Translations under genes and position numbers: made by a program
The notes under the pieces: model-generated
Told to the model about the DNA's origin: nothing
Database searches by the model: none
Seen by the model: only the letters and a program-made list of their open reading frames with translations
Shown here: positions 3,049 to 25,089 of the stretch, piece by piece
Layout of the letters: each line of letters opens with the position of its first letter
Numbering within the stretch: the stretch's first letter is position 1
Virus genome (UHGV): UHGV-0253090
Length of the DNA stretch: 30,200 bases
Direction: 5' to 3' (one strand)
Origin: a virus

Positions 3049-3273
3049 ATGCATACAGTTTCTGAAAATCAGTGCGGTAAATACGCATTACTGCTGCAAC
3101 AGGCCAGAACCGAAGCACAGGCCGACGCTGCGACGCGCTTTTCTTCTCATCTTGACGCCATGATTCGCCATATCACAAAGGCGGAGTTATCCCGCGTGGA
3201 GATAGTCGAGCTGCTCAGTCAGGAGTCGGAAAAATTTCACAATATCGGATTGTCTCGCGGGGAGGTGCTTTGA
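3049..3273 (+). CDS. Hypothetical early protein (P2 orf80-like)
   Basis: 74-aa ORF with GGAGAAAG SD. First of four translationally coupled small ORFs upstream of A, as in P2. Confidence 0.7.
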
Positions 3274-3572
3274 TGTCCTGTTCTCATTCAGTTGTATTAC
3301 TGAATAACGCCTTAAAAATCGCCGTTATGGAAAATGGTGATTTGTCTCTTATTCAACTTTGTCTTGATAAAGAAAAACGCGACATAACTGAATCTGTTAT
3401 CGCGATTTATCAGAATGAATTAAACCTCCTGTCTGATGTGGTCAATTTACTTGTTAAACGCGCTGTGTTCTACAAGCAAATTTCCTCAGTGGATGAACTG
3501 ACAAAATTAACGACAGAACTCGCCAGTTATTGCGCTGATGTATCCAGGAAACTTAACGATAAAAGGAGCTGA
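3270..3572 (+). CDS. Hypothetical early protein (P2 orf81-like)
   Basis: 100-aa ORF, ATGA overlap with the previous ORF. Confidence 0.7.
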
Positions 3573-3574
3573 TA

Positions 3575-3799
3575 ATGCCGGACAACGTAGATTTTATTCA
3601 GGAACAACAGGCTGAATTACTGGAGCGCCAGATTAACGCGGCAAGGGTAAAACATTGCGGTGCTTCTGCGCTGGTTTGCGAAGAGTGTGATGCGCCAATA
3701 TCTGCTGCCCGTCGTGCGGCTTATCCGTCAGCCACGCGTTGTGTTTCCTGTCAGTCAGTCTTTGAAGCAAAAAACAAACATTACCGGAGAACGGCATGA
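3575..3799 (+). CDS. TraR/DksA-family C4 zinc-finger protein (P2 orf82-like)
   Basis: 74 aa with CGASALVCEECDAPI...RCVSC (Cx2C...Cx2C) in a DksA/TraR-like arrangement. AAGGAG SD. Confidence 0.8.
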   Translation: MPDNVDFIQEQQAELLERQINAARVKHCGASALVCEECDAPISAARRAAYPSATRCVSCQSVFEAKNKHYRRTA

Positions 3800-4071
3800 G
3801 TATTCGTATTGAAATTGGCGAACGTTATGTCGTTACCAGTGACAGCTTTCAGTTTATTCTCCACGAGAAAAAGAGAGCGGAAAGCGGTAAAAACGCCGGT
3901 CAGGAATGGCTGTCGGTGGTTGGTTATTACCCGAAATTAAGCCAGCTCGTTTCCGGCCTGATGCATCACGATATTCTGACCGGAAGCGCAAAATCTTTTG
4001 CCGATTTAAACGCGCAGGTTGAGCAACTCAGCAAGCGTTGTTCAGAGGCTTTTGGCTCATATGGCCGTTAA
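3796..4071 (+). CDS. Hypothetical early protein (P2 orf83-like)
   Basis: 91-aa ORF, ATGA overlap with the zinc-finger ORF. Ends overlapping the A start. Confidence 0.7.
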   Translation: MSIRIEIGERYVVTSDSFQFILHEKKRAESGKNAGQEWLSVVGYYPKLSQLVSGLMHHDILTGSAKSFADLNAQVEQLSKRCSEAFGSYGR

Positions 4072-6506: not shown

Positions 6507-6539
6507 GGGCAAGAGGGTGTTCTTGCCCTTTGTTTATTT
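6507..6539. terminator. Bidirectional rho-independent terminator between A and the SIR2 gene
   Basis: Perfect 8-bp stem GGGCAAGA (6507-6514) / TCTTGCCC (6521-6528) with a 6-nt loop, T-rich on both sides. Sits immediately 3' of the minus-strand SIR2 gene stop (6538-6540). Confidence 0.6.
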
Positions 6540-9132
6540 AAGCGGCGATTTCAATGTTGCTTTTATATTTTAAGAGGGCGTTTTTGGGAACTGCTGGCCA
6601 GGCTGAGTATCTATAATAGTTCATATAATCTTTCTCTATCAGTGTTTTTAGCTGTTTGTTAGCTTGAACTTCATCACCAAGTAAAAAGAATGCACACATG
6701 GCCGTAGCCCCTTTTGAATTGTTATGTGCTAAAACTGAATTTATCTCATTCTTTTTAATGTCTTGCCCTTCTTTTTTCTTGGCAACTTCTCTATTGATTA
6801 TTAAAACATCTTTTTCCCTGTAATCTTTAATTTTTTCAAGGTTTTCATTAGCGATTTTAATTGTTTCTTTATAGTTTCCTGCAAGAAGATTGGTATAAGA
6901 TTTTCCTAAGATATAATCACTAAACCCGTAACCTTTTTCATAAGCTTCATCAAGAAGAACTATCGCTTTATCATAATCGCCGTTTAAAGATGCAATATCA
7001 GATTTTAATTTTAAAATGGTGATTTCTGATTTGTTTCTTGGCAGGCTATCAATAAACTCCTCTGCCAATTTGATGTTGTTTTTATCAATTAGTAATATGT
7101 CTACAATACTGTTTGTATGATTATTTTTCCACGGGCAGTTCATGGCTTCTTTGACTAATTCAATACCAGCTTTGATGTCCCTGTTGCAGCCTATCTCATA
7201 TCGAGCTTTAAATATAATGAAAGGAGCAATTCTTGCAATGTCGCTCTCTTCTTCATATTTATCAATAAAGCCTTTCATCAGGTTGGGAGTGTTTTCATCG
7301 AAGTCTGTTTCAAATAAAGATAGATGCAGTTGTGTTAAATATTTTAATATGTTTCTTTTTTTATTTTTTGATGATGTTTTGTAAGCGTTGGATAATGTAT
7401 CTATGCATAATAATGTATCTTCTTTCTTTTGCAATGTGCAGGTGAAATCAGTATATAACGACAAATATGTATCGTGAGTAGGGTTGACCTCTTTTATTTT
7501 GTCAAGCAGTTCTTGTATTAATTTATTACAATCTTTCTTATCATGGCTTGATTGATGTTTTGTCTTTATTGCGTCATATTTTATTCTCCATGCAAAATTA
7601 TCCAGATCACTGCTTTGGAGTAAGCTTTTATCAATTAAATCATGTATTTCATCAAAGGTTATTAATTCTTCATCATTATTTTCTAGATGTAGAATAGCAA
7701 TTCTGCTTAAATGATTCTTAAGATTTATGCTATATGGGAATTTTTCAAGCAATCCCTTAAGGTAATGTATTTTTGCCTTTAGATCTGTGAATATGTTTGC
7801 CCTTGAAAGGGCGTAATTTATATTAAATTCATCAAGAGCTATAAGATTATCACTAATTTCTAATGCTGACTTTGTGTCTTTTTGTTCTTCTTTTATTTCA
7901 ATTAGCCTACGCAGATATTTAGACTTTATATTGTCACTATCAGCGTTATTGATTAATTCATTCAGTTTTGACTCTGCGTTTAAATAATTTTTATTTCTAA
8001 TGAGGTTGTCAATGTATAACAAATTCTTAAAATCTTCTTCGGGGATCTTTTGATCGTCTAAATCACTTTGGGATAGCTCGTTTATTAATGACGATATGTC
8101 ATGTGTTAGAGTGTGTTTTTTTAATTTTGAGAGGTCAGATTTGATAATGCCATTTTTAGATAAGTTGTACTCATCTGTTATAAAGTTTTGGATCATCATC
8201 TCTCTTTTTGTGGATTTTTGATTCCCTCCAAAAGAGAGTGCGCAGCCTAATTCTAGGGCTAGTTCTGCCATCAATTCATCAAAACCTTCTATTTCTACCC
8301 AATAAACTTTATCTTGACCTAGAAGCCTAATAAGTTCTGGTGGGATGGAGTCATTTTTTCTAACGCACCAGTATACTCCATTTCTTAGGTAATCGTCCTG
8401 TTTTAATAAATGTTTTAAAACATCCATGATAGAGCTGTCATTGCCAGCATAACCAACAAAAATAATCCCGTATTCTTTAGTGAATTCAGTTAGTTTTTCA
8501 CGAGTGTTACCTTCTAATGACTCGGTTTCTTTTAAAGAGCTTTTTATGCTATCAAATAAATAATCACCATGTAATTTTATTATTTTTGGCCTTGAAGAAG
8601 TAATTGAGACGCCTTTAATTGATGAATCATGTGCACATAATAATGGTCTGTCAGAAGAAAATTGATAAAATGCTTCATTTATTAAATCGTCAAAATTTGT
8701 TGTGAAGACAGTATCAAAAAACTTTGATTCAAATAGTTCAACGAGATAAGCATATCCAATTGAAGGTAATTTTTTGTCTACTTGAAGCTCAACAAATCTT
8801 CTGCGTTGAGATGGAAGATCAAATTTCTTTTCAAAAAGAGATGAGTATTCATTGTTTGGGTCGTACCAGACTGGATGGTTTTTGGATAGCCATTTTTTAG
8901 CTTCTTCGGCATCGACATATTCTTGATTGGATAGTCTTGTGTATATCTCTTCTCTCCATTTCGCTACTAACTCTTGACCAGTTTTTATTCCAGATGTAAC
9001 GGATGCGCCAGCACCAAGAAAAAGTGAATAGTTAGGTGATGTACCTGATTTGATTTTTATATAATCAGCTAAATCTTTAACGGTTCTTTTTTTGGCAACC
9101 AGTTGTTCCTTGGTAGTATCACGATCAGACAT
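6538..9132 (-). CDS. SIR2-domain protein (predicted NAD+ hydrolase) with long alpha-helical, TPR-like C-terminal region; candidate single-gene anti-phage defence protein
   Basis: 864 aa. N-terminal about 300 aa carry SIR2_2-type motifs LFLGAGASVTSG (Rossmann GAGxS), TTNFDDL (catalytic N) and KLHGD (catalytic H), then IFVGYAGND. The remainder is K/N/D/E/L-rich helical repeat sequence with no Walker A motif. Strong GGAGGG SD. Markedly AT-rich compared with flanking phage genes. Sits in the P2 tin/old slot between A and cos. Confidence 0.8.
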   Translation of the reverse strand: MSDRDTTKEQLVAKKRTVKDLADYIKIKSGTSPNYSLFLGAGASVTSGIKTGQELVAKWREEIYTRLSNQEYVDAEEAKKWLSKNHPVWYDPNNEYSSLFEKKFDLPSQRRRFVELQVDKKLPSIGYAYLVELFESKFFDTVFTTNFDDLINEAFYQFSSDRPLLCAHDSSIKGVSITSSRPKIIKLHGDYLFDSIKSSLKETESLEGNTREKLTEFTKEYGIIFVGYAGNDSSIMDVLKHLLKQDDYLRNGVYWCVRKNDSIPPELIRLLGQDKVYWVEIEGFDELMAELALELGCALSFGGNQKSTKREMMIQNFITDEYNLSKNGIIKSDLSKLKKHTLTHDISSLINELSQSDLDDQKIPEEDFKNLLYIDNLIRNKNYLNAESKLNELINNADSDNIKSKYLRRLIEIKEEQKDTKSALEISDNLIALDEFNINYALSRANIFTDLKAKIHYLKGLLEKFPYSINLKNHLSRIAILHLENNDEELITFDEIHDLIDKSLLQSSDLDNFAWRIKYDAIKTKHQSSHDKKDCNKLIQELLDKIKEVNPTHDTYLSLYTDFTCTLQKKEDTLLCIDTLSNAYKTSSKNKKRNILKYLTQLHLSLFETDFDENTPNLMKGFIDKYEEESDIARIAPFIIFKARYEIGCNRDIKAGIELVKEAMNCPWKNNHTNSIVDILLIDKNNIKLAEEFIDSLPRNKSEITILKLKSDIASLNGDYDKAIVLLDEAYEKGYGFSDYILGKSYTNLLAGNYKETIKIANENLEKIKDYREKDVLIINREVAKKKEGQDIKKNEINSVLAHNNSKGATAMCAFFLLGDEVQANKQLKTLIEKDYMNYYRYSAWPAVPKNALLKYKSNIEIAA

Positions 9133-18878: not shown

Positions 18879-19919
18879 ATGAACACTCTCGCAAATATTC
18901 AGGAACTCGCGCGCGCACTGCGCAACATGATCCGCACCGGCATTATCGTCGAAACCGACCTTAACGCCGGTCGCTGCCGTGTGCAGACCGGCGGCATGTG
19001 CACCGACTGGCTTCAGTGGCTGACCCATCGCGCCGGACGTTCGCGCACATGGTGGGCACCTTCCGTGGGGGAACAGGTGCTGATTCTGGCCGTGGGCGGT
19101 GAACTCGACACGGCGTTCGTTCTGCCGGGGATTTATTCCGGCGATACCCTGACGCTGGAATCCGAGCCTCTCGTCAAACTGCTGGAGGAAAATGCTTATC
19201 GTGAGCTTATCTGGCGTCAGCGTGTGAATGAGGCTGCACGGGCGGTGATGCTGGCCTGTGCCGCCGGTAATGACCTTGATGTGATTGGTGCCAATTACAA
19301 CACCACGCGCCTGACTATCACCCCGGCAGATGATTCGACCATCCCGCCGACACCGGCAGTGATGGAGTCTGACACCGATTATCGTCTGCGTATTCAGCAG
19401 GCGTTTGAAGGTTTAAGCGTCGCCGGGTCGGTGGGTGCCTATCAGTATCATGGCCGCAGTGCCGACGGGCGTGTCGCGGATATTTCTGTCACCAGTCCGT
19501 CTCCGGCCTGCGTCACTATCTCTGTGCTGTCACGTGAAAATAACGGTGTCGCATCCGAAGACCTGCTGGCCGTGGTGCGTAACGCCCTGAATGGCGAGGA
19601 CGTCAGGCCGGTGGCCGACCGCGTGACCGTGCAGTCTGCCGCCATCGTTGAATACCAGATAAACGCCACGCTTTACCTTTACCCTGGTCCCGAAAGCGAA
19701 CCCATCCGCGCTGCCGCCGTGAAAAAACTGGAAGCGTATATCACGGCACAGCACCGGCTGGGGCGCGATATCCGTCTGTCTGCCATTTATGCCGCTTTGC
19801 ATGTGGAAGGTGTGCAGCGTGTCGAACTGGCTGCACCGCTGGCTGACATCGTGCTCAACAGTACGCAGGCGTCTTTCTGTACCGAATACAGCGTCGTGAC
19901 CGGAGGCTCGGATGAGTGA
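18879..19919 (+). CDS. Baseplate ORF that appears to be an in-frame fusion of the gpV N-terminus (about 90 aa) to the gpJ C-terminal region; no separate gpW gene
   Basis: 346 aa. The first 90 aa or so (MNTLANIQELARALRNMIRTGIIVETDLNAGRCRV...LPGIYSGD) match my recall of the P2 spike gpV N-terminus. The rest (TLTLESEPLVKLLEENAYRELIWRQRV...) resembles baseplate J. The canonical V(211 aa)-W(115 aa)-J(302 aa) set is absent between S and I. Confidence 0.6.
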   Translation: MNTLANIQELARALRNMIRTGIIVETDLNAGRCRVQTGGMCTDWLQWLTHRAGRSRTWWAPSVGEQVLILAVGGELDTAFVLPGIYSGDTLTLESEPLVKLLEENAYRELIWRQRVNEAARAVMLACAAGNDLDVIGANYNTTRLTITPADDSTIPPTPAVMESDTDYRLRIQQAFEGLSVAGSVGAYQYHGRSADGRVADISVTSPSPACVTISVLSRENNGVASEDLLAVVRNALNGEDVRPVADRVTVQSAAIVEYQINATLYLYPGPESEPIRAAAVKKLEAYITAQHRLGRDIRLSAIYAALHVEGVQRVELAAPLADIVLNSTQASFCTEYSVVTGGSDE

Positions 19920-20523
19920 TTCGCGACTGCTGCCGACCGGCTCATCACTGCTTGAAGTTGCCGCCGCAAAAGCCTGTGCGGAAATTGAAAAAACGCCGGT
20001 CAGTATTCGTGAGCTGTGGAACCCGGACACCTGCCCGGCAAATCTGCTGCCGTGGCTGGCGTGGTCATTTTCGGTTGACCGCTGGGATGATAAATGGCCG
20101 GAAGCGACAAAACGCGCTGTTATCCGCGATGCGTATTTCATTCACTGCCATAAGGGCACTATAGGCGCAATCCGGCGTGTGGTGGAGCCGCTCGGCTATC
20201 TGATTGAGGTGAGGGAGTGGTGGCAGCTCAACGAGGAGCCGGGGACGTTCCGTATCGTTGTTGGCGTGCTTGAGCAGGGTATTACCGAAGAAATGTATCA
20301 GGAGCTGGAGCGCCTAGTTGCTGATGCAAAACCGGCAAGCCGCCATCTGACGGGACTGGCTATCAGTTTAAGTACAACCGGCAACATTTTTGCCGGTGCG
20401 GGATGCTATCACGGTGACGCCCTGACGGTTTATCCCTACACCCCGGAGGCCATTATTGTCGGAGGGGATTATTTCCCGGCCTCGGCCATTCATTTAATTG
20501 ATAACCTGAGAGTAAACGCATGA
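19912..20523 (+). CDS. I: Baseplate protein I (P2 gpI-like)
   Basis: 203 aa. GGAGG SD. ATGA-type overlaps with both flanking genes. Position before the tail fibre. Confidence 0.8.
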
Positions 20524-21704
20524 CAGTGAAATACTACGCCATTCTGACTAATCAGGGCGCAGCACGGCTGGCTAACGCGACGATGCTCGGCAGTAAGCTG
20601 AATCTGACGCAAATGGCCGTTGGTGATGCGAATGGTGTCTTGCCGACACCAGACCCGGCACAGACAAAACTGATTAACCAGAAACGCATCGCGCCGCTGA
20701 ATCTTCTGAGTGTTGACCCGAACAACCAGAGCCAGATTATTGCGGAGCAAATCATCCCTGAGAACGAGGGCGGATTCTGGATCCGTGAGATTGGGCTTTA
20801 TGATGATGAAGGCGTACTCATTGCGGTGGCAAACTGCCCGGAAACGTACAAACCGCAGTTGCAGGAAGGAAGCGGTCGTACCCAGACTATCCGCATGATT
20901 CTGGTTGTCTCGAATACCGAAGCCATCACGCTGAAAATCGACCCGTCGGTGGTACTGGCGACCCGTAAATACGTGGATGATGAAGTCCTGGAATTAAGGC
21001 TGTATGTGGATGACCAGATGAGAAACCACATTGCCGCACAGGATCCTCATACCCAGTATGCGCAGAAACATAATCCGACATTTACCGGAGAACCAAAAGC
21101 GCCGACGCCTGCCGCAGGAAATAACACCACGCGGATTGCGACCACTGCGTTTGTTCAGGCCGCTATTACCGCTCTGATTAACGGTGCGCCAGCCACGCTG
21201 GACACACTGAAAGAAATTGCCGCAGCCATTAACAATGACCCGAAATTCAGTACCACCATTAACAATGCGCTGTCAGGTAAGCAGCCACTGGATGAGACGC
21301 TGACTCATTTGAGTGGAAAGGATGTAGCTGGTCTTCTCGCATACCTTGGTTTGGGAGAAGCGGCAAAACGGAATGTGGGCACAGGAGATAATCAGATACC
21401 GGATATGGGAGCATTCGCTTCTGGTTCGGGATGGTTCAGGCTACCAGGTGGATATATTGTTCAGTTTGGCACTTTTTCAGGAAACACGACCCGCTTTATC
21501 AGTGGACACTTCCCTATACCATTCCCTAATCGGCCGATGGTTTCAGTCAGTGTTATGTCTGATGCCGTTCAGTCAGACCCGTCGAATCCTGCCCCGCAGG
21601 TTTTGTCTGTAAATTTTGAACATATCAGTAATTCAGCGTGGCGTATGGCAACCAGTGATATCTCATATCAATACAGATTCAGTTATATTTCGATAGGACG
21701 GTAG
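20520..21704 (+). CDS. H: Tail fibre protein: constant N-terminal part plus variable C-terminal tip (current orientation of the invertible segment)
   Basis: 394 aa. The N-terminal region resembles Mu S/P1 S-type tail-fibre constant domains. The recombination site at 21334-21359 lies inside the reading frame, at the LGLGE codons. Confidence 0.8.
21334..21359. repeat. 26-bp DNA-invertase crossover site (left, within the tail-fibre gene)
   Basis: TTCTCGCATACCTTGGTTTGGGAGAA, an imperfect palindrome of the hix/gix/cix type. Shares TTGGTTTGGGAGAA with the reverse complement of the site at 23165-23190. Confidence 0.7.
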
Positions 21705-21706
21705 AA

Positions 21707-22147
21707 ATGCAGAAATATATTTTCAGTGCCGATAAAAATGCGTTTTTCCCTGTGGAGCTTAAAATCGCTTATCAGGAATCCGGCGAATGGCCCGGTGATG
21801 GAATCGAAATTGACGACACTGTTGCCGCCGAATTTATGAAGGAAGCACCAGAAGGAAAATACAGAGGCGTCATCGACGGAATGCCTGCATGGATTGATAT
21901 TCCACCGCCAACTCATGAGGAACAAATTGCCGCAGCCGAACTGGAAAAGCAGCAATTGATTAATCAGGTCAACGAATACATAAACAGTAAGCAATGGCCT
22001 GGTAAAGCGGCGATTGGTCGCCTGAAAGGTGAGGAACTGGCGCAATATAATTTGTGGCTGGATTATCTGGACACACTGGAACTGGTCGATACTTCCGGTG
22101 CGCCAGATATTGAATGGCCTACGCCTCCGGCAGTTCAGGCCAGATGA
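21707..22147 (+). CDS. Tail fibre assembly protein (Tfa, G/U-like), active-orientation copy
   Basis: 146 aa. Directly follows the tail-fibre stop. Typical tail-fibre assembly size and position. Confidence 0.75.
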   Translation: MQKYIFSADKNAFFPVELKIAYQESGEWPGDGIEIDDTVAAEFMKEAPEGKYRGVIDGMPAWIDIPPPTHEEQIAAAELEKQQLINQVNEYINSKQWPGKAAIGRLKGEELAQYNLWLDYLDTLELVDTSGAPDIEWPTPPAVQAR

Positions 22148-22712
22148 CATCCGGCGCGGTGCTGGTATCTGTTACCGTCACCGCGTCAATGTAATCCAGC
22201 ACGGCGTTAAGTCGGGTTGTTTCTGCCTGCGTCAGCTTCCGTCCGGCCTGTAATTTCAGTTGAATCAGACTGATGGAAGCCATTGCAGCATCAATCAGCG
22301 ACTGGCGCTGTGCTTCTGCCGCGTCTACTGCGGCACTATGCTGTGCCTCAGTATCTGTCACCCATTTCTCACCATCCCATTTATCGTATGGCGTTAACGG
22401 TGAAAGCGTGACATAACCGTCTTTGATGGCACCGATATAATCCACTGTAACAGCTGCGCCATTTTCGATTGAGTAAACAGTCTCATTGCGGTGGTCTTCT
22501 TCATGGCTCCATCCCTTACCCGTAAATACTGCCACTTTCCCCGGAATGTATTCGCCCGGGTCAATACCAGTAGAACAGGCGGGCATACTTACGCCAGTAT
22601 TAATATATTCATCAGACCAGCCCGTATATTCAGACGTTACTGCATCATAATAAAAACAACGCATATCACCCGGCACTGTAGCCAGCCCATTTTCATCAAA
22701 AACAGGTTTCAT
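22119..22712 (-). CDS. Tail fibre assembly protein (alternative copy, inverse orientation)
   Basis: 197 aa on the minus strand inside the invertible segment. Its 3' end overlaps the plus-strand tfa 3' end by 29 bp. Confidence 0.7.
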   Translation of the reverse strand: MKPVFDENGLATVPGDMRCFYYDAVTSEYTGWSDEYINTGVSMPACSTGIDPGEYIPGKVAVFTGKGWSHEEDHRNETVYSIENGAAVTVDYIGAIKDGYVTLSPLTPYDKWDGEKWVTDTEAQHSAAVDAAEAQRQSLIDAAMASISLIQLKLQAGRKLTQAETTRLNAVLDYIDAVTVTDTSTAPDVIWPELPEA

Positions 22713-23190
22713 TATGCAGCCCTCACAATATAATTAAAGGCGATGTTACGTGGACGGTTTTCATTAGCTGTTGGCACGACACGAGAGGCGTCGAATCCAA
22801 GGTCATCGGTTTTGTCTATAGTAGTTGTGTTATTCGGCATTCTCGCTGATCGTGTTCCTGCATCGTAAAAAGCCCCTCTGATTGCATCAAAAGACATACC
22901 GATCCCGCCATCTGCGAATCCCTCAATATTTCTTATTGCATCCCCCTGTGAAGATAATAATTGTCGCCCGGCATCCACTCCACGTCCGTCATCCCAGCCA
23001 CGAATAAATTCACCGCGTAAATCAGGCAATTTATTTGTCGGATAAACCTTTGCCAGTTCCGGGTATTCTTCAGCAGAAAAAGCCGCACCATTGCATTTTA
23101 GCCAGCCTGTTGGCGGAGTGGCGGAAGGCCACGGGACAGGCACACCAACGGGTAATGCCGAACCTTCTCCCAAACCAACGTTTAAGAAAA
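22712..23190 (-). CDS. Alternative tail-fibre C-terminal tip (promoterless; expressed only after inversion fuses it to the constant H region)
   Basis: Minus-strand ORF reading ...LGLGEGSALPVGVPVPWPSATPPTGWLKCNGAAFS.... The LGLGE codons coincide with the crossover site, which preserves frame with H. The ORF track extends to 23218, but that part is junction sequence. Confidence 0.65.
23165..23190. repeat. 26-bp DNA-invertase crossover site (right)
   Basis: TTCTCCCAAACCAACGTTTAAGAAAA. Its reverse complement TTTTCTTAAACGTTGGTTTGGGAGAA is the inverted partner of the 21334-21359 site. Confidence 0.7.
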
Positions 23191-23245
23191 TGCAGAGATA
23201 GCGGCTAACTGGCATCATCTCCGGTTTTTATTCAGGGGATCCGTC

Positions 23246-23839
23246 ATGCTTATTGGCTATGTCCGCGTATCAACAAATGACCAGAACACGGAATTGCAGC
23301 GTAACGCACTGGAGTGTGCAGGATGTGAGCTGATTTTTGAGGACAAAATCAGCGGCACGAAGTCCGACAGACCGGGGCTGAAAAAACTGCTCAGAACATT
23401 ATCGGAAGGTGACACTCTGGTTGTCTGGAAGCTGGACAGGCTGGGGCGTAGTATGCGGCATCTGGTCATTCTGGTTGAGGAACTGCGCGAACGCGGCGTT
23501 AATTTTCGCAGCCTGACGGATGCTATTGATACCAGCACGCCGATGGGGCGTTTTTTCTTTCATGTGATGGGTGCCCTGGCTGAAATGGAGCGAGAACTCA
23601 TTGTCGAGAGGACACGCGCCGGACTGGAAGCGGCCAGAGCCAAAGGTCGTATTGGTGGCAGACGACCGAAACTCACCGCGAGTGAGTGGGAGCAGGCCGG
23701 GCGTTTGCTGGCTGCAGGGGAGTCACGTCAACGCGTGGCACTGATTTTTGATATTGGTCTGTCCACGCTCTATAAAAAATTTCCCTCATCAGCGACAAAG
23801 AATAAATTGTGTCATCCCTTAGCCAACCGGGACAAATAG
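23246..23839 (+). CDS. Serine DNA invertase (Hin/Gin/Cin/Pin family)
   Basis: 197 aa, MLIGYVRVSTNDQNTELQRNALECAGCELIFEDKISGTKSDRPGL...VVWKLDRLGRSMRHL..., nearly co-linear with e14 Pin / Mu Gin including the catalytic Ser in the VRVST motif. AGGGGA SD. Confidence 0.92.
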   Translation: MLIGYVRVSTNDQNTELQRNALECAGCELIFEDKISGTKSDRPGLKKLLRTLSEGDTLVVWKLDRLGRSMRHLVILVEELRERGVNFRSLTDAIDTSTPMGRFFFHVMGALAEMERELIVERTRAGLEAARAKGRIGGRRPKLTASEWEQAGRLLAAGESRQRVALIFDIGLSTLYKKFPSSATKNKLCHPLANRDK

Positions 23840-23898
23840 CCTGACATCTCCGGCACAACTGAAAATATCACTCACCCATTAACCACGGAGTTAAACGG

Positions 23899-25089
23899 AT
23901 GAGTGACTATCATCACGGCGTGCAGGTGCTGGAGATTAACGACGGCACCCGTGTCATTTCCACCGTATCCACGGCCATTGTCGGCATGGTCTGCACGGCC
24001 AGCGATGCGGATGCGGAAACCTTCCCCCTCAATAAACCGGTGCTGATTACCAATGTGCAGAGCGCAATTGCAAAGGCCGGTAAAAAAGGCACGCTGGCGG
24101 CATCGTTGCAGGCTATCGCCGACCAGTCAAAACCGGTCACCGTTGTTGTGCGCGTGGAGGACGGCACCGGCGACGACGAAGAAACGAAGCTCGCGCAGAC
24201 CGTTTCCAATATCATCGGCACCACTGACGAAAACGGTCAGTACACCGGACTGAAAGCCCTGCTGGCGGCAGAGTCGGTAACCGGTGTTAAACCGCGTATT
24301 CTTGGTGTGCCGGGACTGGATACCAAAGAGGTGGCTGTAGCACTGGCATCAGTCTGTCAGAAGCTGCGCGCTTTCGGGTATATCAGCGCATGGGGCTGTA
24401 AGACCATTTCCGAGGTGAAAGCCTACCGCCAGAATTTCAGCCAGCGTGAGCTGATGGTCATCTGGCCGGATTTCCTCGCATGGGATACGGTCACCAGTAC
24501 CACCGCCACCGCGTATGCCACCGCTCGTGCGCTGGGGCTGCGCGCTAAAATCGACCAGGAGCAGGGCTGGCATAAAACGCTGTCCAACGTCGGGGTGAAC
24601 GGTGTTACCGGCATCAGCGCATCTGTATTCTGGGATTTGCAGGAGTCCGGCACCGATGCTGACCTGCTTAACGAGTCAGGCGTCACTACGCTGATTCGCC
24701 GCGACGGTTTCCGCTTCTGGGGTAACCGTACCTGCTCTGATGACCCACTGTTTCTCTTTGAAAACTACACCCGTACCGCGCAGGTGCTGGCCGACACGAT
24801 GGCTGAGGCGCACATGTGGGCGGTGGACAAGCCCATCACCGCAACGCTGATTCGCGACATCGTTGACGGCATCAATGCCAAATTCCGTGAGCTGAAAACA
24901 AACGGCTATATCGTGGATGGCTCATGCTGGTTCAGCGAAGAATCCAACGATGCGGAAACCCTCAAGGCCGGAAAACTGTATATCGACTACGACTATACAC
25001 CGGTGCCTCCTCTCGAAAACCTGACCCTGCGCCAGCGTATTACCGATAAATACCTGGCGAATCTGGTCACCTCGGTTAACAGCAATTAA
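23899..25089 (+). CDS. FI: Tail sheath protein (P2 gpFI-like)
   Basis: 396 aa, same length as P2 FI. Confidence 0.9.
   Translation: MSDYHHGVQVLEINDGTRVISTVSTAIVGMVCTASDADAETFPLNKPVLITNVQSAIAKAGKKGTLAASLQAIADQSKPVTVVVRVEDGTGDDEETKLAQTVSNIIGTTDENGQYTGLKALLAAESVTGVKPRILGVPGLDTKEVAVALASVCQKLRAFGYISAWGCKTISEVKAYRQNFSQRELMVIWPDFLAWDTVTSTTATAYATARALGLRAKIDQEQGWHKTLSNVGVNGVTGISASVFWDLQESGTDADLLNESGVTTLIRRDGFRFWGNRTCSDDPLFLFENYTRTAQVLADTMAEAHMWAVDKPITATLIRDIVDGINAKFRELKTNGYIVDGSCWFSEESNDAETLKAGKLYIDYDYTPVPPLENLTLRQRITDKYLANLVTSVNSN

Follow-up and report, generated by a model that had tools for sequence, protein, structure and literature searches.

Both orientations of a tail-fibre segment in a P2-like Escherichia coli prophage point to a Pin-type inversion system

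Does this tail-fibre locus contain a switch that still exchanges one fibre tip for another, and is there still a phage that such a switch could serve? The question arose from a first-pass annotation of the stretch of DNA analysed here, 30,200 nt of the virus genome UHGV-0253090 (hereafter the window), which had likened the locus to the Mu G, P1 C, and e14 P segments and placed it in a P2-type tail cluster. That comparison held, as every element of the arrangement was present and an intact invertase gene adjoined it. We consider it very likely that the locus is a site-specific inversion system of the Pin type (Hin/Gin/Cin/Pin) and that it lies in the operon for the tail fibre of a P2-like E. 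coli prophage.

The tail-fibre gene, of the P2 H type, lies on the plus strand at 20520–21704 and encodes 394 aa matching Pfam and PHROG tail-fibre families, with Phage_tail_fib spanning aa 1–150 (E = 9e-63) and Gp53-like_C spanning aa 307–394. Its constant part comprises aa 1–276 (20520–21347), and aa 277–394 form the expressed variable tip, Sv. The gene is followed on the same strand by the 146-aa chaperone for Sv (21707–22147; Pfam Caudo_TAP, E = 8e-34; phrog_188). On the minus strand, a silent alternative tip of the tail-collar type, Sv′ (154 aa, 22712–23176; Pfam Collar, E = 4e-15), is accompanied by its own 197-aa chaperone (22119–22712; Caudo_TAP, E = 1.5e-26; phrog_105). The two chaperone genes converge with a 29-nt overlap, and the C-terminal 80 aa of the Sv′ chaperone share 34% identity with the Sv chaperone. 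The mechanically called open reading frame of Sv′ reaches beyond the invertible segment as far as the ATG at 23218. In domain family, Sv (Gp53-like_C) and Sv′ (Collar) are distinct, and their phage relatives differ as well. While Sv′ matched PDB entry 9cuy, a "short tail fiber" (E = 8e-33), and T4 gp37 (E = 7e-15), a sequence search among solved structures returned no relative of Sv.

Two 26-bp sites in inverted orientation were found exactly where they had been placed, and both are pix-like. The left site (plus strand, 21334–21359; TTCTCGCATACCTTGGTTTGGGAGAA) has a 12-2-12 layout with a central TT at 21346–21347, and the right site (minus strand, 23165–23190; reverse complement TTTTCTTAAACGTTGGTTTGGGAGAA) has its central TT at 23178–23177, giving an invertible segment of 1833 bp between the central dinucleotides (21346–23178). 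The sites are identical to each other at 21 of 26 positions, the perfectly shared stretch being the inner 14–15 nt with the central TT included, and an inverted-repeat search ranked them first by length in the region (I1, 27 nt). When the window was scanned with the palindromic Gin/Cin/Pin consensus TTCTCNNAAACCNNGGTTTNNGAGAA, which has 20 specified positions, only these two sites were matched, at 19/20 and 18/20 positions. Thirty shuffles yielded a mean of 0.13 matches even at a threshold of at least 15/20, and the same scan exactly recovered the known gix sites at the Mu G-segment boundaries, the annotated cix sites of P1, and the pix sites of e14. The consensus scan of the 30.2-kb window found no third crossover site of the kind expected for a shufflon-like, multiple-inversion system.

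Both sites start at codon position 2 and hence share the same reading phase. Inverting 21346–23178 in silico preserved the frame, as the first-pass annotation had predicted, and replaced the 394-aa product with an intact, open fibre frame of 430 aa, behind which the 197-aa chaperone comes next; the variable parts are 118 aa and 154 aa. The proposed exchange of each tip together with its cognate chaperone was likewise borne out, since a separate Caudo_TAP chaperone gene follows each of the two tips. The claim that both sites fall on LGLGE codons stood in part: GLGE is common to both, but the leading L occurs only in the plus-strand gene (L-GLGE), and the silent copy reads V-GLGE.

The adjoining plus-strand gene (23246–23839) encodes an intact serine DNA invertase of the Pin/Gin/Cin family with 197 aa, a Resolvase domain (PF00239, E = 2e-52), and an HTH_7 domain (PF02796). 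Ser9 sits within the motif YVRVSTNDQ. Its identity is 86.7% with PinE of e14, 79.6% with Gin, and 79.8% with Cin, and it matched the chains of the Gin crystal structure (E = 1.6e-94). It carries the wild-type residues H106 and M114, while the crystallised Gin chains have V at position 114. The same invertase protein was found in 4932 blocks of a public protein collection.

Within the first part of the invertase gene lies a presumed recombinational enhancer (plus strand, 23264–23335); 58 of its 72 bases agree with nt 19–90 of P1 cin, where an enhancer is annotated. Predicted Fis sites, 15-mers matching the consensus KNNYRNNWNNYRNNM, occur at 23268–23282 and 23316–23330 with a spacing of 48 bp; these correspond to nt 23 and 71 of the gene, within the stretch annotated as enhancer in P1, and both recur, conserved, at the same points of the genes for Gin, Pin, and Cin. 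Synonymous-codon conservation was 0.50–0.58 in the first 108 nt and 0.32–0.58 elsewhere, with no clear excess over the enhancer, so the case for this element is made by homology and motif spacing. A sigma-70 promoter scan of 20300–24000 gave seven matches against 5.0 expected, which is not above chance. The scan therefore did not locate the invertase promoter and did not prove the absence of a promoter for Sv′, although the description of the minus-strand Sv′ frame as promoterless is plausible.

According to the mechanism that we propose, dimers of the invertase would bind the two 26-bp sites, and Fis, acting from the presumed enhancer, would assist synapse formation, so that inversion may be Fis-dependent, as the motif matches suggest. 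Both sites would then be cut at the central TT and the strands exchanged, flipping the 1833-bp segment. Since the promoter and the first 276 fibre codons lie outside the segment, each orientation joins them in frame to one tip: the gp53-like C-terminal tip in the orientation of the window and the tail-collar tip in the flipped orientation. In either case, the cognate chaperone gene lies directly downstream of its tip. We infer that Sv and Sv′ recognise different receptors and that the switch alters host range.

A close parallel among classic systems is the e14 P segment of E. coli K-12 with its invertase PinE, which shows the same order of constant fibre part, tip, chaperone, reversed chaperone, reversed tip, and invertase. 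Its left and right sites are identical to those of the window at 23 and 25 of 26 positions, with the same central TT; the 3′ parts of the chaperone genes are about 91% identical in DNA, and the segments are of similar size, with 1833 bp in the window and 1797 bp in e14 (PMC12529663). However, e14 is a lambdoid element with a Mu-like baseplate, whereas the constant fibre part and its neighbours in the window are P2-type; the tip sequences also differ, and the C-terminal tail of the window's invertase is 13 aa longer than that of PinE. The Mu G/Gin and P1 C/Cin systems share the mechanism, the architecture, the 26-bp sites, an invertase about 80% identical, and the gene positions of the Fis-consensus matches in the presumed enhancer, but their segments are larger (approximately 3 and 4.2 kb) and carry long S tips without DNA similarity to those of the window, and the central dinucleotide of gix is different. 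Shufflon-like, multiple-inversion systems, such as Min of p15B and the three-site P2-like locus of EPEC, differ in having at least three sites and more than two arrangements, compared with two sites in the window.

Among P2-like relatives, Escherichia phage pro483 has the order I, H, chaperone, reversed chaperone, reversed tip, invertase, and sheath, with an annotated invertase 98% identical and a constant fibre part 97% identical to those of the window, but its cassette pair is different and the segment aligns only in part. With pro483 and the prophages of enteropathogenic E. coli (EPEC), we group Fin of the Fels-2 prophage, a second invertase of Salmonella LT2, as invertase-bearing P2-like relatives. 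In the P2-like prophages of EPEC E2348/69, inversions of approximately 1.8 kb were verified by PCR in 2014 (PMC4272514); in one of the EPEC loci there are three sites, with four variants, unlike the two-site locus of the window. The same paper also cites Kutsukake (2006) for a second invertase in LT2. Escherichia phage SKA5 carries the same segment in the same orientation; the similarity starts at the left crossover site, runs on into the invertase gene, and amounts to 96.4% identity in DNA, and the fibre tip that SKA5 expresses is 100% identical in protein to Sv′. Its constant fibre part and whole baseplate, in contrast, are unrelated to those of the window (Mu-type and e14-like, of the Mup44–47/YmfQ type). 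That the similarity to SKA5 begins at the crossover site shows that the cassette moves as a module between phage lineages. In line with this, some matches in the search of complete genomes began at query position 436.

The element that carries the locus follows the P2 gene order, from the gpA replication protein, the Q portal, and the lysis genes through R-S-V-W-J-I-H to FI-FII-E-T-U-D, with Pfam matches to GPA, portal, Tail_P2_I, and sheath, and the annotation of a near-identical prophage in E. coli 1332KP (L001) agrees with this P2-like (Peduoviridae) order. The tail cluster around the switch is P2-type (R-S-V..J-I-H ... FI-FII-E-T), except at V, W, and J, where an 847-bp deletion has left one V::J fusion in place of three genes; it takes out the C-terminus of V, all of W, and the N-terminus of J, all baseplate genes. 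The deletion is rare, its lineage having been seen in only three contigs, which are 100% identical to one another. No tRNA gene was found across the 30.2-kb window, and thus no tRNA marks an attachment site.

Both orientations, proposed at the outset as a check on the switch, were found in silico. One metagenome contig (L007) is the same element: its 8482 nt upstream and 2756 nt downstream of the segment are 100.000% identical to the window, the V::J fusion protein is shared, and the invertase is intact, yet 21346–23181 is inverted, and the gene call for its fibre has 430 aa and includes a Collar domain. The E. coli 1332KP prophage shows the same flip at 99.6–99.9% identity, with an upstream flank 99.9% identical, and has lost most of the invertase gene. 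In both, the recombination joints lie within 21346–21360 on the left and 23164–23181 on the right. A Logan contig (L008) terminates at precisely 21360, where the sequence shared by the two orientations ends. Among complete E. coli genomes, the module was present in the native arrangement in 40 and in the flipped arrangement in 40, counting those in which at least 80% of the 2.8-kb query was present in the given arrangement. Comparison across separate genomes and contigs, as read from their assembled sequences, thus showed that the exact element exists in both orientations. Because L007 shares the deletion and the identical flanks but is flipped, at least one inversion took place after the deletion.

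A prophage with the V::J deletion most likely cannot make infectious particles on its own, although the switch most likely keeps flipping there. Since the deletion removes baseplate genes, host-range switching is probably vestigial in the window's copy, and there is probably no viable phage left for the switch in this deletion-bearing copy to serve. The host-range function is not usable at present by the deletion-bearing prophage alone.

Such persistence raises the question of whether the host has taken over the switch, either because the fibre made in one orientation blocks other phages or because the invertase acts in trans. A precedent exists on the homologous e14 P segment, where inversion driven by PinQ gives rise to StfE2, and StfE2 prevents T2 from adsorbing (PMC12529663). 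The similarity of the window to e14 (sites identical at 23/26 and 25/26 positions, invertase 87% identical to PinE) and the occurrence of an intact invertase in a baseplate-defective lineage that still flips are in its favour. If it were true, the locus would supply a receptor-masking fibre against superinfecting phages, or trans control of other invertible prophage segments. Nevertheless, the tips of e14 are not those of the window, and the three mutually identical contigs of the deletion lineage suggest that it may simply be too young for further decay. We therefore regard host co-option of the defective prophage as improbable, and equally doubt that the lineage retains an active invertase and both cassettes because its host uses them.

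Still less probable is a frozen relic, in which the sites and cassettes would be leftovers of an ancestral switch that has ceased to flip in this element. The prophage is decaying, as the V::J deletion indicates, and its close relative in E. coli 1332KP lacks most of the invertase gene, but the invertase of the window is intact and 99.5% identical to its counterpart in an undeleted relative, and L007, which shares the deletion and matches the window at 100% in its flanks, has the segment flipped. Finally, although inverted repeats allow RecA-mediated inversion and can mislead assemblers, we rejected, as having almost no likelihood, the explanation that RecA recombination at the short inverted repeats or misassembly produced the orientation differences without the invertase, because the shared core of 14–15 nt is shorter than RecA requires and far below the k-mer sizes in use (a MEGAHIT-style contig name begins with k141; Logan uses k = 31) and the joints fall exactly within sites matching the invertase crossover consensus, and it is also at odds with the equal frequency of both orientations in closed genomes.

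The arrangement described here, a Pin-type switch of tail-fibre tips, is already known and very common in E. coli prophages, and nothing about it is new. Its value as a discovery is small, as tail-fibre inversion by the Pin/Gin/Cin family is textbook biology, and inversion in P2-like E. coli prophages has been shown experimentally and is also annotated in public phage records. Its uses are practical. For annotation, the minus-strand "phage tail protein" frame should be read as a silent cassette and not as an independent gene; for assembly, contigs break at the crossover sites or vary there between assemblies. For the study of prophage decay, the locus offers a clean natural case of a switch that most likely still flips after the loss of essential baseplate genes.

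The invertible segment (21346-23178, 1833 bp) is bounded by two 26-bp crossover sites in inverted orientation, site L at 21334-21359 on the plus strand (TTCTCGCATACCTTGGTTTGGGAGAA) and site R at 23165-23190 on the minus strand, read as the reverse complement (TTTTCTTAAACGTTGGTTTGGGAGAA). The two are identical at 21 of 26 positions and share the inner 14 nt (TT GGTTTGGGAGAA), so that their inner half-sites are the same and their outer half-sites differ. In a repeat search of 20400-24000, this pair was the longest inverted repeat. When the window was scanned with the palindromic consensus for crossover sites of this class, TTCTCNNAAACCNNGGTTTNNGAGAA, only site L and site R were recovered, at 19/20 and 18/20 specified positions, and shuffled sequence (n = 30) gave a mean of 0.13 matches even when the threshold was lowered to 15/20. 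Mu, P1, and e14 served as positive controls: in each, the scan returned exactly two sites, which straddle the G-segment boundaries annotated in Mu, span cixL and cixR as annotated in P1, and form the pair flanking the P segment in e14. The e14 sites were the closest to those of the window (23/26 and 25/26, with the central TT in common).

Both sites start at codon position 2, and reverse-complementing 21346-23178 in silico left both 26-mers unaltered and the fibre ORF open, at 430 aa instead of 394 aa. The first-pass annotation was therefore right to place the 26-mer pair exactly here and to state that inversion keeps the reading frame; its claim that both sites encode LGLGE holds for one copy, the silent copy reading VGLGE.

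The P2 H-type tail fibre gene (20520-21704, plus strand) encodes a Phage_tail_fib domain at aa 1-150 and a Gp53-like_C domain at aa 307-394. Two genes with Caudo_TAP chaperone domain matches, at 21707-22147 on the plus strand and 22119-22712 on the minus strand, converge with a 29-nt overlap, and the similarity of their products is confined to the C-terminal 80 residues (34% identity). The silent alternative tip, Sv′, contains a tail-collar domain and is encoded on the minus strand at 22712-23218, its coding frame entering the segment via site R. A search of solved structures related Sv′ to the "short tail fiber" 9cuy (E 8e-33) and also to the collar region of T4 gp37 and gp12; sequence search of solved structures with Sv, the tip expressed in the window orientation, found no relative. 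Isolated phages such as vB_EcoM-683R1 and 500465-2 carry Sv at about 96% identity, and the isolated phage SKA5 carries Sv′ at 100% identity. The two tips would presumably differ in receptor specificity.

The silent-tip ORF runs 9 codons past the crossover site to an ATG-ATG (23192-23218, minus strand), where the sole Shine-Dalgarno-like motif, GGAG, directly abuts the start codon. Such ORFs are labelled "phage tail protein" or "gp53-like domain-containing protein" by PGAP in relatives, and the e14 counterpart stfE is annotated as a pseudogene in K-12. Such gene calls on silent cassettes are probably artefacts of annotation.

The invertase gene (23246-23839, plus strand) encodes a recombinase of the resolvase family that has an HTH_7 domain and the catalytic Ser9. 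Over its full length the enzyme can be aligned with the crystallised Gin chains (E 1.6e-94), and its sequence identity amounts to 86.7% with PinE of e14, 79.6% with Gin, and 79.8% with Cin. It retains H106 and M114, the residues at which Fis-independent Gin mutants differ from wild type; the crystallised Gin chains have V at 114. The Cin enhancer is annotated at cin nt 19-90 in the P1 record, and the homologous stretch of the window, 23264-23335, is identical at 58 of 72 positions. Two matches to the degenerate consensus KNNYRNNWNNYRNNM at nt 23 and 71 of the invertase gene are predicted Fis sites. Both are kept at the same gene positions in Gin, Pin, and Cin, and their 48-bp spacing is canonical for the Fis-site pair of the Hin, Gin, and Cin enhancers. 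Codon-level conservation over the putative enhancer added no independent support.

The switch most likely works by the Gin/Cin/Pin paradigm. Invertase dimers would bind the two 26-bp sites, a Fis-bound enhancer would lead to invertasome assembly, and cleavage of both strands at the central TT would be followed by subunit rotation and religation. The fibre promoter and codons 1-276 remain fixed, and each orientation provides one tip with its own chaperone directly downstream. The anatomy, the common reading phase, the family membership, and the existence of both orientations are established, and Fis dependence is predicted.

The flipped left junction, built in silico, matched E. coli 1332KP at 100%, compared with 98.1% at best for the native junction. 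The 1332KP prophage is 99.87% identical to the window upstream of the segment and carries 21346-23181 inverted at 99.56% identity, with breakpoints within the two sites. Its invertase gene has lost 411 bp between 11-bp direct repeats, CTGATTTTTGA, which lie at 23330-23340 and 23741-23751 in the window; the affected stretch is 8147-8254 in the 1332KP prophage and 23330-23751 in the window, and the putative enhancer and both crossover sites are still present. With its invertase truncated, the 1332KP prophage is locked in the flipped state unless a Pin-family enzyme from elsewhere can act on it in trans.

A look-up of the window's unusual V::J fusion protein, a single ORF joining baseplate gene V to J, yielded the metagenome contig L007 (ENA ERZ27318055). 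This contig encodes the identical fusion, has an intact invertase, and matches the window at 100.000% identity across 8482 nt on the upstream side and 2756 nt on the downstream side. Its segment is flipped, so that a 430-aa fibre with a Collar domain is called there. One clone-level element thus occurs in both arrangements, and the inversion is later than the V::J deletion. A Logan contig with the identical fusion (DRR171674_1401) stops precisely at 21360, the final base that the two orientations share, as expected of an assembly-graph branch from mixed orientations in that sample's reads, which is suggestive rather than proof. Among complete E. coli genomes matching a 2.8-kb query across the module at a coverage of at least 80%, 40 carried the native arrangement and 40 the flipped one. 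The E. coli genome NZ_OY754349.1 has two module copies (1772058-1774855 and 4637673-4640473), each 96.3% identical to the query, one native and one flipped.

The whole window is a P2-like prophage from integrase (454-1449) to gpD. Its V::J fusion (18879-19919, plus strand; 346 aa) has Phage_base_V at aa 19-86 and Baseplate_J at aa 162-305 and comprises the OB-fold N-terminus of gpV and the C-terminal two-thirds of gpJ. Relative to the 1332KP prophage (positions 3199-4046), 847 bp are absent, which takes away the C-terminus of V, the whole of W, and the N-terminus of J; the joint, near 19145-19149, shows a short microhomology. The identical fusion protein occurs on three public contigs. Since gpW is absent and V and J are truncated, P2 biology would lead one to expect no baseplate assembly; the prophage is probably baseplate-defective, and the host-range switch is therefore probably vestigial in this copy. 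StfE2, a receptor-masking fibre protein, is the product of a PinQ-driven e14 inversion (PMC12529663); that the switch of the window has been co-opted for a comparable function is a speculative reading of very low probability.

Between gpA and the portal gene, a P2 accessory hotspot, the minus strand encodes an 864-aa protein (6538-9132) with an N-terminal SIR2_2 domain (E 4e-15). The PADLOC matches, to pAgo-associated SIR2 proteins and PDC-S65, are confined to the SIR2 part, and about 500 C-terminal aa have no assignment. The protein is a candidate for an anti-phage defence moron that consists of a single gene.

The window system has every testable hallmark of Din-family inversion, its Fis-dependent enhancer being putative, and every testable one of the fibre switches of Mu G, P1 C, and e14 P type; it does not belong to the multi-site shufflons. 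This supports the fibre switch proposed in the first-pass annotation. As that annotation states, the setting is a P2-type tail cluster: P2 gpI lies upstream of the module and the FI sheath gene on its downstream side. The test proposed there, detection of both orientations, was answered in silico by L007.

Inversion switches in P2-type phages are already known and common. In the annotation of the P2-type phage pro483, the genes follow the same order and the invertase is 98% identical, and further P2-like phage records contain a DNA invertase. In EPEC E2348/69, inversions in two P2-like prophages were verified by PCR, one locus having three sites with inversions of about 1.8 and 2.2 kb (Goldberg et al., 2014; PMC4272514). 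Gene families enriched at programmed inversions include "tail fiber protein," "tail fiber assembly protein," and "Phage tail protein I" (Milman et al., 2023; PMC9881135). The exact window invertase protein occurs in 4932 blocks of a public protein collection, adjoining many different cassette pairs in either orientation. SKA5 (OR670062.1, 3501-5513) carries the same segment at 96.4% identity next to a Mu-type baseplate (Mup44-47, YmfQ), in contrast to the P2-type baseplate of the window; its similarity begins at the left crossover site, indicating that unrelated tail types exchange the cassette as a module. The segment also adjoins pinE-annotated genes in some E. coli genomes, where the match begins at query position 436, the left site. 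The occurrence of the segment in SKA5 and beside pinE-annotated genes agrees with the long-known modular exchange of such cassettes.
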